Assembly: GCA_002778575.1 (NCBI GenBank)
Contig: PFBJ01000003.1
Span: 11,057-75,056 of the forward strand
From: Candidatus Kaiserbacteria bacterium CG10_big_fil_rev_8_21_14_0_10_49_17
GTDB lineage: Bacteria > Patescibacteriota > Minisyncoccia > Phycocordibacterales > JABMNX01
Length of the DNA stretch: 64,000 bases
Reading direction: 5' to 3'
Below are positions 42,593 to 48,066 of this stretch, in pieces. Under the pieces are notes generated by a model. The model did no database searches. It worked only from the letters and a program-made list of their open reading frames with translations, and was not told the origin of the DNA. Within the stretch, counting starts at the first letter, position 1. Each line of letters opens with the position of its first letter. Made by a program: the position numbers and the translations under genes.

Positions 42593-43615
42593 TTATTTTC
42601 GTAACTCCTCCTCTGTAGCTAACCGACGAGCTCCGACATGGAGACCCACGATTGCATCTCTTTCGGAAAGTCCGAGACGCCGTTTGTTGGAAATGTCGTA
42701 GACCCCCCCAACACTCTCGGAATGCTCCCCGTGAATGCCTCGAACCGAAAGTCCGAGGAGTTTTGCGAAATCATCAAGTTCGCCACTTTTCTCGAGCGCA
42801 GGGAGTTTCATATGGAAGCTCGCACGCATTGCCGTTCCAAGGTTTGTTGGACAACTTGAGAGGTATCCAAGCTGTTGTGTGTAGGCAAATGGGACGTTCT
42901 TTTCGATTTCAGAAATCGCACGTACCAGCCTGCTATAGACAGAGAGCAGGTCACCTCCCTGCTCAAGAGAGATAATACGAAGGTGATCTTCCTCATTCAC
43001 CCACACAATGAACTTCTTATCGTTTGAAAGAAAAATGCCGCGTCCTGCCGGCCAGTCCCGATTGACTCCTGCGCTCTCAAGGAAACGATCCCCTTGCTTG
43101 AAGAGCACGTGGTCTTCAATCAGTTTATTTCGTGTTTCCTCATCGAGATCTGCAAGCGAGTGATACGTGCCTGCCAAATCATCAGGAAGCTTTGAGAGAG
43201 CATCAACAACTCGCCGCTCAACTTCCAGACGCTCGTCTAGAGACATTCCTGGCGTTAGCGCAAAACCGTCAAGATTTCGCCCAACACGCGCGCGCGTTGA
43301 GATAACACGATCACGGTAAAGCTCAGCTCCGGTAAACTGCCCCGGCTTGATCGTCATATCCTGCGGGTGTGCAAGAGAATCAACATTTTCAATGTTGTGG
43401 TACTCCGCAATAATGGGACCAAAAAGACCCCAAAACACCTCGTACGATTCAGCATCCGGCGCATAGACGCCGATACTGCTGTCCGGATTTTCAACTCCAG
43501 AGCGTGTAATATCATCAAGGCTAAAGCCTCGATTCGTCTTCGCTCTTCGCAATTCGGATGCAACATCCTCGGTAAAATGCTTGGCTAGAAGTGATTGCTT
43601 GACTGGCATGTGCAT
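42593..43615 (-). CDS. Phosphagen (arginine) kinase, eukaryote-type with N-terminal domain
   Basis: SLLAKH, SGVENPDSSIGVYAPDAESY, STRARVGRN, GDRFL, WVNEEDHLRIIS, CPTNLGT, RGIHGEHS, DISNKRRLG. Confidence 0.92.
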   Translation of the reverse strand: MHMPVKQSLLAKHFTEDVASELRRAKTNRGFSLDDITRSGVENPDSSIGVYAPDAESYEVFWGLFGPIIAEYHNIENVDSLAHPQDMTIKPGQFTGAELYRDRVISTRARVGRNLDGFALTPGMSLDERLEVERRVVDALSKLPDDLAGTYHSLADLDEETRNKLIEDHVLFKQGDRFLESAGVNRDWPAGRGIFLSNDKKFIVWVNEEDHLRIISLEQGGDLLSVYSRLVRAISEIEKNVPFAYTQQLGYLSSCPTNLGTAMRASFHMKLPALEKSGELDDFAKLLGLSVRGIHGEHSESVGGVYDISNKRRLGLSERDAIVGLHVGARRLATEEELRK

Positions 43616-44463: not shown

Positions 44464-45279
44464 CTATTTGGGAACAAAAAGTTTTTGGAATTCGCAAAAC
44501 GGCATACCGTAATTGAAGCCGGGGTCAAAGTCTTGCAGACGTTTTTCTCTATCGTTGTATCTGACATTCTGATTGAAGTCGATGAATGCAACGAGCGCAA
44601 AACGGCCATTTTGAGCACTGTGCGGTGTCGGTCGCACGCAGTGGCACAGTGCCTTTAGTGCGCCGCCGGAGCGGTACTGCAATCCCATGCTTGGAAAAAT
44701 GACTGTTTTTTCTCCAGAGAGCGTCCACGGGTGCCAGTGCCGATCAAATCCGTAATATTCCCCTCCTTCCTGATTTTCATAAAGATGCAAGGTAAAATCG
44801 CCTCGATCCACATGCGGGTACGCAAGCATTGCCTCGCCGAAATAGTGAAGGTAGCGAAACGTCCAGCGCTTGTGGGAGGCACGCACTTCACTTTCAAAGC
44901 CAGAAAGATTGAATTCCTTCTCGACTGCATGCGCAAATTCCCCAACAAGCGGTACCGACTCTCTAATGAGGTTAGAGACGGCATCAATGAAGCGGAACCC
45001 CCTTTTCTCATGAACTCCGTCGGCACAGCTCCACAAAACCGGCAACTGCTCCTCAACAACGTGGAACATCTCTTTCGAGTCAGAGCGCGTTCCTGCATCA
45101 TTGCGGAGCATATACCCAAAGTCGTTGGCTCGATCACCCTTAGAAAACTGGCGCTTTTTCTCTTCGGGCAATGTGCAGAAAGCCTGCCACGAAGCGACCG
45201 CCTCTTCAACCGAAGCGCGGAGTGCTGTGGGGTACGGTACCTCCACCATCCCCTTCGTTGCCAAAGCAGACACATCCAT
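44464..45279 (-). CDS. 2-oxoglutarate/Fe(II)-dependent dioxygenase (IPNS-like)
   Basis: F..LPEE.K, D.KE.F, R.LHY, HVD (HxD), distal H in ALCHCV, RFA; GGAGG SD. Confidence 0.85.
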   Translation of the reverse strand: MDVSALATKGMVEVPYPTALRASVEEAVASWQAFCTLPEEKKRQFSKGDRANDFGYMLRNDAGTRSDSKEMFHVVEEQLPVLWSCADGVHEKRGFRFIDAVSNLIRESVPLVGEFAHAVEKEFNLSGFESEVRASHKRWTFRYLHYFGEAMLAYPHVDRGDFTLHLYENQEGGEYYGFDRHWHPWTLSGEKTVIFPSMGLQYRSGGALKALCHCVRPTPHSAQNGRFALVAFIDFNQNVRYNDREKRLQDFDPGFNYGMPFCEFQKLFVPK

Positions 45280-45398
45280 TTTTTCCTCCACTGCTGATTT
45301 TCTTTTTGTAGAGTACCAAAATACGCGATGGAAAGAAGATTGACACAAATGAAAGATGGCGTACTCTTCTCATGGATACCAACTACTGGAGAGTAAAG

Positions 45399-46118
45399 AT
45401 GGGTTTTCGTTTGCAGTTGCCGATTTACCTTCCGACTCAGGGAGATGTATTGCCGTCAACACATCTGGCGAAACACGAGTTCTATGTCTGGCAACTTATT
45501 CGCTCACTAAGCGGAGCTGTGCGGTGGCCTGGAGCACACGGCGACTCACCAACACCGTCACAGACAGCAGACAATTGTATGTTTTCCTGGATACTGGGAA
45601 AATATCAAGAGATGTTGCAAAGCATTACTCGAGATGACATTGCGCCTCCGTTTCGCATTGATATCAAACCAAAGCCTCACGAATATAATGACCGGAGCTT
45701 AAAGGAGTTGTATGCTCAGTCGGTACGAGTGCTTATGCACGCCGGTTACTCTGGATGCATTGACCCTGTTCGCATCGGGACAGAAGATACATATCCAATG
45801 CCTGATGTAATGCTTGATCACAACCAAGCACTCGAGCAACTTGATTGGAAGCGGCTGCGCTTCGCCTACCGCTTCAGCAATGCTCCAGCATTTACTGATG
45901 ATCTGCCATTACTGTGGGTGCCAACTCGGCGCGTTGCCCGATGGTGGGAAGAAATGATTGATGGGAAACCATCAAAAACGCAAGAAATTCTAAAGTCAGA
46001 TGCACTGTCCTTACGAATTGCTCGCGCCAGACTCGCCTACATGAAAGAGTGGGGTAAAGTTAGAGCCCGTGTTCTTCTCGATTTTCATCCGATTTTCACC
46101 CTCTGTATGGTGCCCTAA
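45399..46118 (+). CDS. Hypothetical protein (ORFan-like)
   Basis: TTGACA-16-TACTCT (45340-45367), GGAG SD before ATG 45399 (alternative start 45372), terminator after. Confidence 0.65.
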   Translation: MGFRLQLPIYLPTQGDVLPSTHLAKHEFYVWQLIRSLSGAVRWPGAHGDSPTPSQTADNCMFSWILGKYQEMLQSITRDDIAPPFRIDIKPKPHEYNDRSLKELYAQSVRVLMHAGYSGCIDPVRIGTEDTYPMPDVMLDHNQALEQLDWKRLRFAYRFSNAPAFTDDLPLLWVPTRRVARWWEEMIDGKPSKTQEILKSDALSLRIARARLAYMKEWGKVRARVLLDFHPIFTLCMVP

Positions 46119-46129
46119 AAATATTCTAG

Positions 46130-46159
46130 ATCAGCCCGCATTCAGCGGGCTGATTTTTT
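46130..46159 (+). terminator. Rho-independent terminator
   Basis: atcagcccgc-attca-gcgggctgat-ttttt. Confidence 0.8.
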
Positions 46160-46248
46160 CTGCACTCACGCATCACCTTAACGTTGCGTCGAGATGTGCC
46201 CGACAGCCTGCGCAGGCATCTTGCAAAATACCCCTGCCTCACATCACT

Positions 46249-46285
46249 ACAAAAACATCACACTATTTCTGTGTGATGTTTTTGT
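46249..46285 (-). terminator. Perfect 15-bp hairpin downstream of the tRNA locus
   Basis: acaaaaacatcacac-tatttct-gtgtgatgtttttgt. Confidence 0.65.
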
Positions 46286-46330
46286 GACGATGTGGACCAA
46301 ACCGGAATTGAGCCAGCGACCTCCTGAGTA

Positions 46331-46495
46331 ATTGCACCCTAACAAAATGAGATGATCGAGTTTGATTACACTGTGGACCCGACTGGAATCGAACCAGCGA
46401 CCTCCTGAGTGCAAAACAGGTGCTCTAGCCAACTGAGCTACGGGCCCACACTGCAATCAAACAATTTTGTTCATCTCATTTTGTTAATGTGCAAC
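46331..46495 (-). repeat. Long inverted repeat flanking tRNA-Ala
   Basis: 46340-46355 pairs perfectly with 46471-46486 (16 bp); 46360-46370 pairs with 46452-46462; 46331-46337 pairs with 46489-46495. Confidence 0.9.
46374..46447 (-). tRNA. tRNA-Ala (UGC); CCA not encoded
   Basis: GGGCCCG/CGGGTCC acceptor stem with G3:U70, D-arm GCTC/GAGC, anticodon TGC, T-loop GGTTCGATTCC, discriminator A. Confidence 0.96.
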
Positions 46496-46605
46496 GCAAA
46501 ACGTTCGACAGTCTCCCGGACTGTCTCACCCCTAGCCAATGAAGCCACGGGCCATCTACATAAATGAACTTACAACACGTAAGTTCACACGAGTGAAATT
46601 ATACC

Positions 46606-47574
46606 CTACTTCCCCCTTCTGGCAAGTACAATGACATGCTCGAGCAATTCAGGGAGCGAGCTTCCTGCTGCAGTGAGCGCTTGTACAAGCGGCGCCTCTT
46701 GGGAAAGTGACGGAAGCGTGTTGGTCTCCAAAAAATACACTCCTCGCGGGGAGACGATAAAATCTGATCGGGAGTAATGCCGGGCGCCGAGCGCGCGATG
46801 TATGCAAAGTGCCGCATCCTGCAGTTCTTGTTTTATGCCGTGTGAAAATGTGCTTGGACAGTGTCCAATTGCCAAGCCGCAGCCTTTAAGCTCTGGTGTG
46901 ATTATCATCTCTCCCTGCGGGCGCACAATTTCAACCGGAAGCGTTTGGTAGTACTCCTCACCTCGAAAACCATCAATGACGCCCACGGTTGCCTCCGGAC
47001 CTCGGATATACTCCTCAATCAGCACCTGATTTGAGTGCGTGAAGGCCCGCGCAATACTCTCTGCCAGATCGGTATACCCGTAGGCAACTGAAGTACCTAT
47101 AGATGATCCGCGAGCAACCGGTTTTACCACCACCGGCATTGGGAAACTTCGAAATAAATCAAGTAGTCGCTTTTCATAGTCTTCTGAGACTCGAAATACG
47201 ATACACTGTGGTGTCCGCAACCCCGCTTCTACCGCACACTCTTTTGCCCGCACCTTGTGCATTGCTAGTGCTGATGCAAATGCATCCGAGCCGGTATATG
47301 GTACAGAAAGCTTTTCAAGAATTCGCTGTACAGTCCCATCCTCCCCGTATTCACCACAAAGAGCATTGAGCGCAACATCAACACCATGAAGTGCCCGCTC
47401 TGGAGTAGTTGGCACGCCGCGCATATGCCACACACCATCTCGGTCAATAAAGATATCGCGTACCTGATACCAATCGGTAGTAAGTGAACGGAGTACGTGC
47501 GCACCGCTTCGAAGCGACGTATCGTATTCACTTGAAGGTCCTCCTCGAAGAACGCCTACAGAGAGCTTTGCCAT
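46606..47574 (-). CDS. D-Ala-D-Ala ligase family ATP-grasp enzyme (divergent)
   Basis: VLRGGPSSE, GEDGTVQ, PYTGS, VKP..GSSIG, RSDFI, E.NTLP. Confidence 0.85.
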   Translation of the reverse strand: MAKLSVGVLRGGPSSEYDTSLRSGAHVLRSLTTDWYQVRDIFIDRDGVWHMRGVPTTPERALHGVDVALNALCGEYGEDGTVQRILEKLSVPYTGSDAFASALAMHKVRAKECAVEAGLRTPQCIVFRVSEDYEKRLLDLFRSFPMPVVVKPVARGSSIGTSVAYGYTDLAESIARAFTHSNQVLIEEYIRGPEATVGVIDGFRGEEYYQTLPVEIVRPQGEMIITPELKGCGLAIGHCPSTFSHGIKQELQDAALCIHRALGARHYSRSDFIVSPRGVYFLETNTLPSLSQEAPLVQALTAAGSSLPELLEHVIVLARRGK

Positions 47575-47598
47575 TACATACAGTATACCAAAGCAAAG

Positions 47599-47622
47599 CC
47601 CGCCGTGCGTGTGCACGGCGGG
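47599..47622 (-). terminator. GC-rich hairpin after the ORFan
   Basis: cccgccgtgc-gtgt-gcacggcggg. Confidence 0.6.
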
Positions 47623-47628
47623 TGGGAA

Positions 47629-48066
47629 TCACCAATCCTTGAGTACTTTTCCAATACTCTGGGTTATCTCTAGAAATTGTGAGACCACTGTTGTGTAGGC
47701 ATCTTCGATTTCGGCCTCAATATACTCAGAAATAGTCTCTTCCCGTAACTGATCTTCGGAAAGAACAAGATAACGTTCTCTCTGTGGGACTCCCGCAATT
47801 ATTCCCTTGGCCGGGGAGTATAAATCCTCATCAAGCCCATAATTCGGTGGATGCGGAATAAGACTTTGCAAGCTCACGACAACCTTAAACTCCCAATGTG
47901 ACGCCCAATCAGACCAATGCTGCCGATCCGGGCGACGAATGTGGATCACCTCTACGCTTTTGCTTTTCGTTTCTGGAATACACGCAAGCGCATCCCCCGC
48001 GGCTGCAAAACAAATGCCGGGAAATTCGCTTTTTCGCTCCCACTCCACAACGATTTTCGCACTCAT
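47629..48066 (-). CDS. Hypothetical protein (ORFan-like)
   Basis: TTGCAG-17-TATTCT promoter, AAGGGAG SD, hairpin downstream. Confidence 0.6.
   Translation of the reverse strand: MSAKIVVEWERKSEFPGICFAAAGDALACIPETKSKSVEVIHIRRPDRQHWSDWASHWEFKVVVSLQSLIPHPPNYGLDEDLYSPAKGIIAGVPQRERYLVLSEDQLREETISEYIEAEIEDAYTTVVSQFLEITQSIGKVLKDW

Follow-up and report, generated by a model that had tools for sequence, protein, structure and literature searches.

Layout of the tRNA-Ala locus

The window (the whole stretch of DNA that was analysed, 64,000 nt long) comes from a tiny-genome groundwater bacterium. At 46291..46554 it carries an intact tRNA-Ala gene nested in a dead copy of itself, as a preliminary description had proposed: the inner gene is recognized by ARAGORN and Rfam, the 3′ part of the outer copy matches it at 34/39 positions, and the junctions are backed by contigs. 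Read along the minus strand, ddl and a promoter-like site are followed by a decayed 5′ piece of the outer copy, a 29-nt hairpin block and 7 nt with the anticodon, and then by a 48-nt arm, the intact tRNA-Ala(TGC), a second arm, the decayed 3′ piece and a terminator-like hairpin, as follows.

46606..47616, minus strand: ddl, D-Ala-D-Ala ligase (PF07478/PF01820), which marks the tRNA-Ala locus on its upstream side in the family
46598..46625, minus strand: sigma-70-type promoter-like site, 11/12 matches in a consensus scan (0.6 expected by chance in the region)
46566..46586, minus strand: 21-nt leader hairpin (from sequence, fold and spacing)
46532..46554, minus strand: outer (old) tRNA-Ala, positions about 1-23, decayed, 18/23 identical to the inner gene
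46503..46531, minus strand: 29-nt block with a 7-bp hairpin (46525-46507), 27/29 identical in the homologue L277
46496..46502, minus strand: outer tRNA positions 30-36, ending with the TGC anticodon, 7/7 against the inner gene (one change in L277)
46448..46495, minus strand: cassette 5′ arm, 48 nt, pairing with the 3′ arm at -47.3 kcal/mol
46373..46447, minus strand: intact tRNA-Ala(TGC) with G3-U70, CCA not encoded (ARAGORN; Rfam RF00005, 66.9 bits)
46330..46372, minus strand: cassette 3′ arm (from the fold)
46291..46329, minus strand: decayed part of the outer (old) tRNA-Ala from position 37 onwards to the 3′ end, 34/39 identical to the inner gene
46249..46285, minus strand: 15-bp hairpin with T-runs after the outer 3′ copy (from the fold; unscored by the consensus scan), probably a terminator

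The 166-nt insert contains no ORF. Its extent (46330-46495) and the break directly after the TGC anticodon were confirmed from the sequence: the 5′ remnant ends with C36 and the 3′ remnant begins with A37, with no duplicated core at the junctions, although a short one could be masked by decay. From 46495 to 46330 the insert folds as a single rod, consisting of 7 bp, a 1x1 mismatch, 17 bp and an 8x4 internal loop, beyond which come 11 bp, a G.G mismatch and 3 bp stacked on the acceptor stem. The 7-, 16- and 11-bp stems described earlier are thus recovered, but the middle one is 17 bp long (16 Watson-Crick pairs and a U-G) and a further 3 bp do the stacking. The fold has a z-score of -7.55, with 0/200 shuffles as stable, and the sense strand folds at -81.5 kcal/mol versus -66.8 kcal/mol for the antisense strand. 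In a strand-neutral alignment the arms form 34 Watson-Crick, 2 G-U, 1 A-C and 2 other pairs, numbers that are too few to show RNA-level selection at this locus.

The broken acceptor stem first claimed for the outer copy is confirmed, and T54 and the anticodon stem are broken too; the 3′ part of this copy carries T54C, G57A, A63G and two further changes in the acceptor strand. The degenerate 5′ part is present as well, but it is not collinear with the gene, since the 29-nt hairpin block is interposed after 23 nt, replacing the 3′ strand of the D-stem and the 5′ strand of the anticodon stem, where the gene has 7 nt. Among the 34 tRNAs called in the assembly the inner gene is the sole one for Ala, and the outer 3′ copy is the only other place in the genome with at least 30/39 identity to it. 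Matches of at least 18/23 to the gene start occur at five places in 1.29 million positions, namely the outer 5′ copy, the inner gene and three other tRNA starts (two called by ARAGORN and one at a contig end). Ile(TAT) and Ser(GCT) are each called twice among the 34, Val, Glu, Asn and Phe have no call at all, and a tRNA-like start lies at the end of contig C20; the tRNA set of the assembly is incomplete. Elsewhere in the window, a 340-aa ORF (42593-43615, minus strand) reads by eye like an arginine kinase/ATP:guanido phosphotransferase.

An assembly artefact is ruled out as far as contigs show, both junctions being supported without differences. In run X1, which is possibly the source of the assembly, contigs with 0 differences cover 45000-46398, 46434-46607 and 46585-48000, and in run X2, from a separate study, one such contig covers 46081-46430; the whole nest is spanned by no single listed contig piece, and X1 is the one run that supports the 5′ junction. 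Two minor X1 contigs, each single, differ from the window. The first (depth 8.1) joins 46489 to 46561, omitting the outer 5′ copy, and may be another allele or organism. The second (depth 3.6) has, within 46337-46372, a G-C pair for an arm G-U and lacks one loop base, and continues elsewhere.

Empty alleles, a homologue and recurrent nests

The comparison of empty and filled alleles that had been proposed gave a uniform result. Among nine other genomes of the family, all 8 with a match carry a plain tRNA-Ala beside ddl, the ddl tblastn matches adjoining the tRNA in every case, and no arms or tRNA halves are seen by eye at these 8 loci. In 6/8 of them, a similar -10 box precedes the plain gene by 24-28 nt. 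Here, 158 nt separate the -10 box from the inner gene and about 51 nt separate it from the outer copy; were the 21-nt leader hairpin absent, the outer copy would begin ~30 nt after the box, like the plain gene of the relatives. Therefore, the outer copy occupies the ancestral place of the gene; the promoter-like site at 46598..46625 lies where the tRNA promoter stood ancestrally. In L257 and L263, cassettes of other families occupy this ddl locus, indicating that it has been hit repeatedly. A BLAST search with the locus, run against 41 relatives and 10 genomes of the family, gave little more than matches to the tRNA body.

A metagenome scan returned two stretches, one of them a chance match and the other, L277, a homologue of the same architecture. 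L277 is 80.7% identical over 274 nt and lies in DNA of 38% GC without a ddl match. In the outer stem it differs from the present locus by 4 substitutions and 1 indel, all of them mirrored in the partner arm as counted from pairwise alignments. Correspondingly, duplexes crossed between the arms of the two loci reach -19.5 and -20.3 kcal/mol versus -47.3 and -35.9 kcal/mol for the native ones. Such mirrored changes would fit selection on the hairpin, and equally the copying of one arm from the other. The internal loop lies at the same place in both loci; the outermost arm bases differ, which leaves a conserved terminal binding site without support from this comparison. The inner genes of L277 and of the window differ at three sites, at two of which the outer copy matches its local inner gene. 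This local match points to gene conversion or local templating as the probable process, and is unlike what simple import of a foreign tRNA would leave. L277 could be a rearranged descendant rather than the product of a transfer.

In L251, which has the same Ala allele, no cassette is present, and a dead copy contains, at the corresponding position, a hairpin that shares the loop motif; the small hairpin can therefore be a separate insert. Around 1000-1500 of L251, the Ala allele has short arms and is followed by dead copies with three different hairpin inserts. The left-end pattern of the family to which the present locus belongs was found in 0/400 genomes of the order, a set nearly identical to the one used for the recurrence survey below, and in 0 viral contigs. 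Two large scans yielded L277 and debris in L251 as the only further members, and none that bears a nuclease gene.

Nests of the same layout, for which a search at other tRNAs had been suggested, are present at tRNA-Gln(CTG) and tRNA-Thr(CGT) in this genome and in many genomes of the order. The tRNA-Gln(CTG) nest (G000:C3:37123-37384, plus strand) has a 5′ copy with a hairpin, arms and a 3′ copy from about position 32, and its family recurs at Gln and Leu(TAG) genes in several genomes of the order. The tRNA-Thr(CGT) nest (G000:C3:30619-30917, minus strand) is broken in the D-loop and has an N gap in its 5′ part; its outer halves represent another allele, in which the acceptor and anticodon stems carry paired changes.

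Recurrence was sampled with a T-loop doublet pattern, which matched in 112/401 genomes of the order, many of them through tandem genes; this tally includes an unpublished genome, G257, on which no result depends. From 139 listed matches 90 loci were taken (30 given by the tool and 60 non-tandem ones chosen by eye), and with the three loci of this genome and those from the GTDB and metagenome scans, minus two duplicates, 123 loci were screened. A partial 3′ copy was found at 84 tRNAs, arms of at least 10 Watson-Crick pairs at 64, and also a 5′ copy at 40. The 40 tRNAs passing this filter represent 15 anticodons, and 35 of the passing loci come from 33/400 other genomes of the order. Two loci, L159 and the tandem cluster L170, are doubtful, and real nests such as L277 escape the filter; with one exact pattern used, about 30/400 genomes with nests is a lower bound. 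Of 47 cases scored for the start of the outer 3′ piece, 26 have it at positions 34-37, six, all of them Gln(CTG), at 28-32, and two in the D-arm or close to it. The proposal that the cassette targets the anticodon thus holds for the main cluster of breaks, but not for those at 28-32 and in the D-loop. The two remnants meet within a few bases in 14 clean cases found by script and also in the three nests of this genome.

In the phylum of this bacterium (151 genomes), 6 tRNAs pass the filter among 30 loci listed. In the phylum to which a record named Bacteroidota belongs (101 genomes), 2/30 listed loci pass and a third nest was recognized by eye (L369, L381, L370); judging by their translations, the neighbours of these nests look like trigger factor, pyrR/pyrB and atpD. 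As judged from these sequences, the nest layout seems to extend beyond Patescibacteria. L369, L370, L381 and L371 contain nests and tandem tRNA 3′-end repeats, and two of these four share a GC-rich end motif with Patescibacteria. Among 130 loci listed from viral contigs (5 + 125) no nest was found, only tandem tRNA genes. An integron attC relationship was considered and rejected: the core-like hexamers of some nests belong to a broader terminal motif, and at the present locus no unpaired spacer follows the core-like bases, as seen by eye.

Other tRNA-related features were noticed in this genome and elsewhere. About ten tRNA genes (G000 C1, C3, C10, C11, C16, C19, C20) are followed by a 145-190 nt element made up, in order, of a hairpin, a stretch antisense to the T-arm of the gene, a shared core and a 14-20 nt copy running from the T-loop to the 3′ end; each target gene has an antisense part of its own. 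Duplicates of tRNA 5′ parts lie upstream of genes at G000:C1:106356, C17:61638, C19:4354, C3:14083 and C10:15373, some of them doubled, and several contain a 20-nt GC-rich palindrome. Upstream of C1 106073, directly before tRNA-Leu(TAA), lies the apparent end of a frame that we take, by eye, to encode an HNH-type nuclease. In another genome (G452:C14:42446-43916), an array of about 68-nt tandem repeats is seemingly derived from a tRNA 3′ half.

A gene-bearing sister family and the origin of the nests

Among 30 stretches listed from the GTDB scan, 12 were tandem genes or chance matches, two were L251 and L263, and 16 belonged to one further Ala(TGC) family. The 16 copies share short terminal inverted ends that are unlike those of the present locus, and the copies that keep both junctions are broken at 35/36 without target duplication. 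In 7/16 copies, an ORF of 81-89 aa lies between the left end and the inner tRNA, and the encoded proteins match GIY-YIG (PF01541) in 6/6 cases scanned. The one protein of this family searched gave weak best PDB matches, to UPF0213 proteins, and the small GIY-YIG proteins gave nothing above the cut-off against NCBIfam. In L253 there are two hairpin modules, the ORF lying in one and the tRNA in the other; L260, L271 and L275 have ends of the sister type without an ORF. Moreover, in 5/16 copies the 3′ arm contains bases complementary to the start of the inner gene itself, as would be expected from fold-back copying.

Small GIY-YIG genes were also surveyed for their distance from tRNAs. From 165 matches in 61 genomes, 72 genes were examined (69 high-scoring ones and three of this genome), of which 18 lie at most 300 nt from a tRNA versus about 4% expected, with non-independent loci and a background taken from this genome only; the other 54/72 are not near one. 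None of the three small GIY-YIG genes of this genome is at the nest locus. One of them (G000:C1:89482-89691, plus strand) lies between the intact tRNA-Leu(CAA) gene and a 5′ duplicate of it that contains a palindrome, a layout also seen in L324, L327, L333 and L348. Another (G000:C20:49805-50017, plus strand) lies in an inverted repeat of ~19 bp, the surroundings of which read by eye as 23S rRNA.

We consider it moderately probable that a nuclease-less hairpin cassette split the old tRNA-Ala gene and now rescues it, having spread by recombination after a GIY-YIG cut. The parts of this reading differ in firmness: the layout, the empty allele, the dead outer copy and the recurrence are observed, and the enzyme, its substrate and the transfer are inferred. 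That DNA was inserted and left a dead outer copy behind is very probable, and with scarcely less confidence the locus can be assigned to a recurrent class of hairpin cassettes; spread driven by a nuclease is an evenly balanced proposition. The earlier suggestion of a non-autonomous hairpin cassette carrying a full replacement gene is upheld by the empty alleles (8/8), the homologue elsewhere and the wide recurrence.

In the cassette scheme, the 166-nt unit of arm, whole tRNA-Ala and arm would have entered the resident gene between C36 and A37. The resident gene, which would also have been broken by a second small hairpin near position 23, would then have decayed, leaving the inner gene as the sole Ala tRNA. 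The locus would be a nuclease-less member of its class, and the small hairpin either an empty first module or an independent insert. A small GIY-YIG nuclease acting in trans may cut hairpin or cloverleaf single-stranded DNA, whether transforming or lagging-strand, after which fold-back synthesis would make or repair the arms and the tRNA halves would supply the homology needed to recombine into the corresponding gene of the recipient. Only cassettes with the cognate tRNA would survive, because these genomes hold one gene per anticodon. As the only Ala tRNA called, the inner tRNA must be released from its stem; RNase III could cut the long stem and so let RNase P and the CCA enzyme free it. Genes for RNase III, RNase P RNA and a PolyA_pol/CCA-family protein are present in the genome.

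A bolder form of the cassette reading is held tentatively, with the balance leaning slightly against it: the nests would be a minimal mobile class without integrase or transposase, in which a GIY-YIG nuclease cuts a tRNA-shaped loop of single-stranded DNA and cassettes with a cognate tRNA recombine, overwriting the host gene and allowing lineages to swap tRNA alleles, both in Patescibacteria and in one other phylum or more. The 166-nt locus would then be a nuclease-free passenger.

The alternative that survives best, which we nevertheless regard as unlikely, is a recurrent accident of replication or repair with no mobile element. A nascent strand would fold back on the acceptor stem and copy the leader into a second arm, re-annealing at palindromic anticodon bases would leave the 3′-half duplicate, and a separate event would leave the 5′ duplicate. 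Such an origin would account well for arms that begin directly on the acceptor stem and vary freely yet stay complementary, for the 5/16 sister-family arms that copy the first bases of their gene, for the local match of inner and outer alleles, and for the separate 5′-only and 3′-only duplicates that are common in this genome. It fares worse with the remnants that meet within a few bases in so many nests (the 14 found by script and the three here) and with terminal motifs common to different tRNAs, families and a second phylum. Moreover, inner and outer copies are different alleles in L214, L253, L266 and the Thr(CGT) nest of this genome, and nuclease genes lie inside the same ends. A one-off template-switch duplication, which the preliminary description had set against its own reading, is contradicted by the existence of other loci and by the mirrored changes of the arms.

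Collapse of a tyrosine-integrase element of the tRNA-dependent-lysogeny type is quite improbable. Such an element would have integrated in the anticodon loop without rebuilding the gene, brought a tRNA of matching isotype and lost the rest, and the anticodon-loop break with a same-anticodon replacement is indeed what the accessible part of PMC10865867 describes. However, no integrase lies in or near the inspected nests, the sole PF00589 gene being on another contig (C11), the junctions show no duplicated core, the longer members carry a GIY-YIG gene instead, and the 130 viral loci listed include no nest. In addition, deletion would not be expected to yield arms that stack on the acceptor stem.

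Still a shade less probable is that the stem, whatever its origin, is now selected as a device for RNA processing or regulation, for example as an RNase III gate on tRNA-Ala maturation. The five mirrored changes and the equally placed internal loop in L277 would suit this role, as would the more stable sense-strand fold and the presence of RNase III, but mirrored changes would also follow from arm-to-arm copying, and 8/8 relatives manage without arms. The G-U pairs had been read early on as a sign of selection on RNA structure. Indeed, the arms of the 64 tRNAs hold 50 G-U versus 28 A-C mismatches on the sense strand (p = 0.017), an excess that would favour the gate. The dead outer copies, used as a drift control, lean in the same direction (19:13; Fisher p = 0.67 versus the arms), and the bias was rejected as proof of RNA selection, the excess not exceeding background drift.

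The weakest alternative, the intron-like processing route raised in the preliminary description, in which the hairpin would join the outer halves, the insert would be excised and two tRNAs would be made, can be set aside as highly improbable: the outer halves of the fresh nests L179 and L214 would, by eye, still pair into a tRNA, and the frequent insertions of CPR rRNA genes are mostly predicted introns (as stated in the available part of PMC9297842), but here the outer copy, with its acceptor stem, anticodon stem and T54 broken, cannot be rebuilt, its joined halves give no tRNA-Ala at a relaxed ARAGORN threshold, and intron mode finds the inner gene only. Rfam returned no intron family at the gathering score, and the tRNA splicing endonuclease EndA (PF01974) and RtcB (PF01139) were not found in the 20-contig assembly, their absence being unproven. 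A genome-wide run in relaxed ARAGORN intron mode gave mostly spurious calls and was not used.

If the cassette reading is right, essential single-copy tRNA genes in many of the smallest genomes have been overwritten by cassettes of 110-400 nt, which would let tRNA alleles be exchanged horizontally and would possibly reveal a new chemistry of DNA insertion. It would also give the abundant, uncharacterised small GIY-YIG proteins a testable natural role, and the sole tRNA-Ala of this bacterium, released from a helix of ~38 bp, would be an unusual substrate of RNase P. Such loci should not be annotated as tRNA introns or prophage att sites.

Comparison with known systems

No published description of the nested layout was found in the literature searched, which comprised few subscription papers and no supplements. 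The present analysis contributes a homologue whose arm changes are mirrored, a control for drift, signs of fold-back copying and nests from a second phylum. Integrase elements are reportedly flanked by attL/attR fragments at tRNA genes, with a displaced 3′ half that begins in the anticodon loop, as Williams is said to have described in 2002. With ordinary att pairs, what remains is a whole gene plus a single fragment, whereas at the present locus a whole gene is flanked by both halves, each displaced. REP/REPIN and PATE elements of the IS200/IS605 group, which depend on a Y1 transposase, are short non-autonomous hairpins that make no target duplication and can carry cargo in the loop. In contrast to these, the cargo here is a complete gene that replaces its own target, and neither a Y1 transposase (PF01797) nor IS110 (PF02371) was found in the assembly.

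In mycobacteriophage tRNA-dependent lysogeny, as set out in the part of the paper available, the prophage breaks an essential host tRNA gene and supplies a tRNA of matching isotype (PMC10865867, Guerrero-Bustamante and Hatfull 2024). The present locus resembles that account in its anticodon-loop break, in a target gene that is not rebuilt and in the whole same-isotype tRNA supplied. In contrast to the whole prophage with a tyrosine integrase and a core of ~10 bp portrayed there, it has 166 nt, no integrase and no duplicated core, and its tRNA sits at the tip of its own inverted repeat.

The small single-domain GIY-YIG genes of the Ssn/NTS/SRM systems are flanked by hairpin-forming repeats and have been likened to an insertion sequence, and SsnA cleaves single strands of DNA near its hairpin, at a distance of a few bases, according to the accessible text of Chenal et al. 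2025 (PMC11893778). Similarly, GIY-YIG genes flanked by hairpins occur in the sister family and elsewhere in this genome; they are absent at this locus. In that text tRNA goes unmentioned and no mobility is shown.

The free-standing GIY-YIG homing endonuclease SegB of phage T4 is described, in the part of the source at hand, as recognizing a tRNA gene motif and spreading with neighbouring tRNA genes by gene conversion (PMC2330249). In our sample of the order, 18/72 GIY-YIG genes lie at most 300 nt from a tRNA; there is none at this locus. SegB acts on double-stranded phage DNA at a 27-bp site during co-infection, and the same part of that paper describes neither nested genes nor a hairpin cassette. 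Finally, an intact target persists in the inner gene, and simple homing has difficulty with this unless flanks or strand structure play a part.
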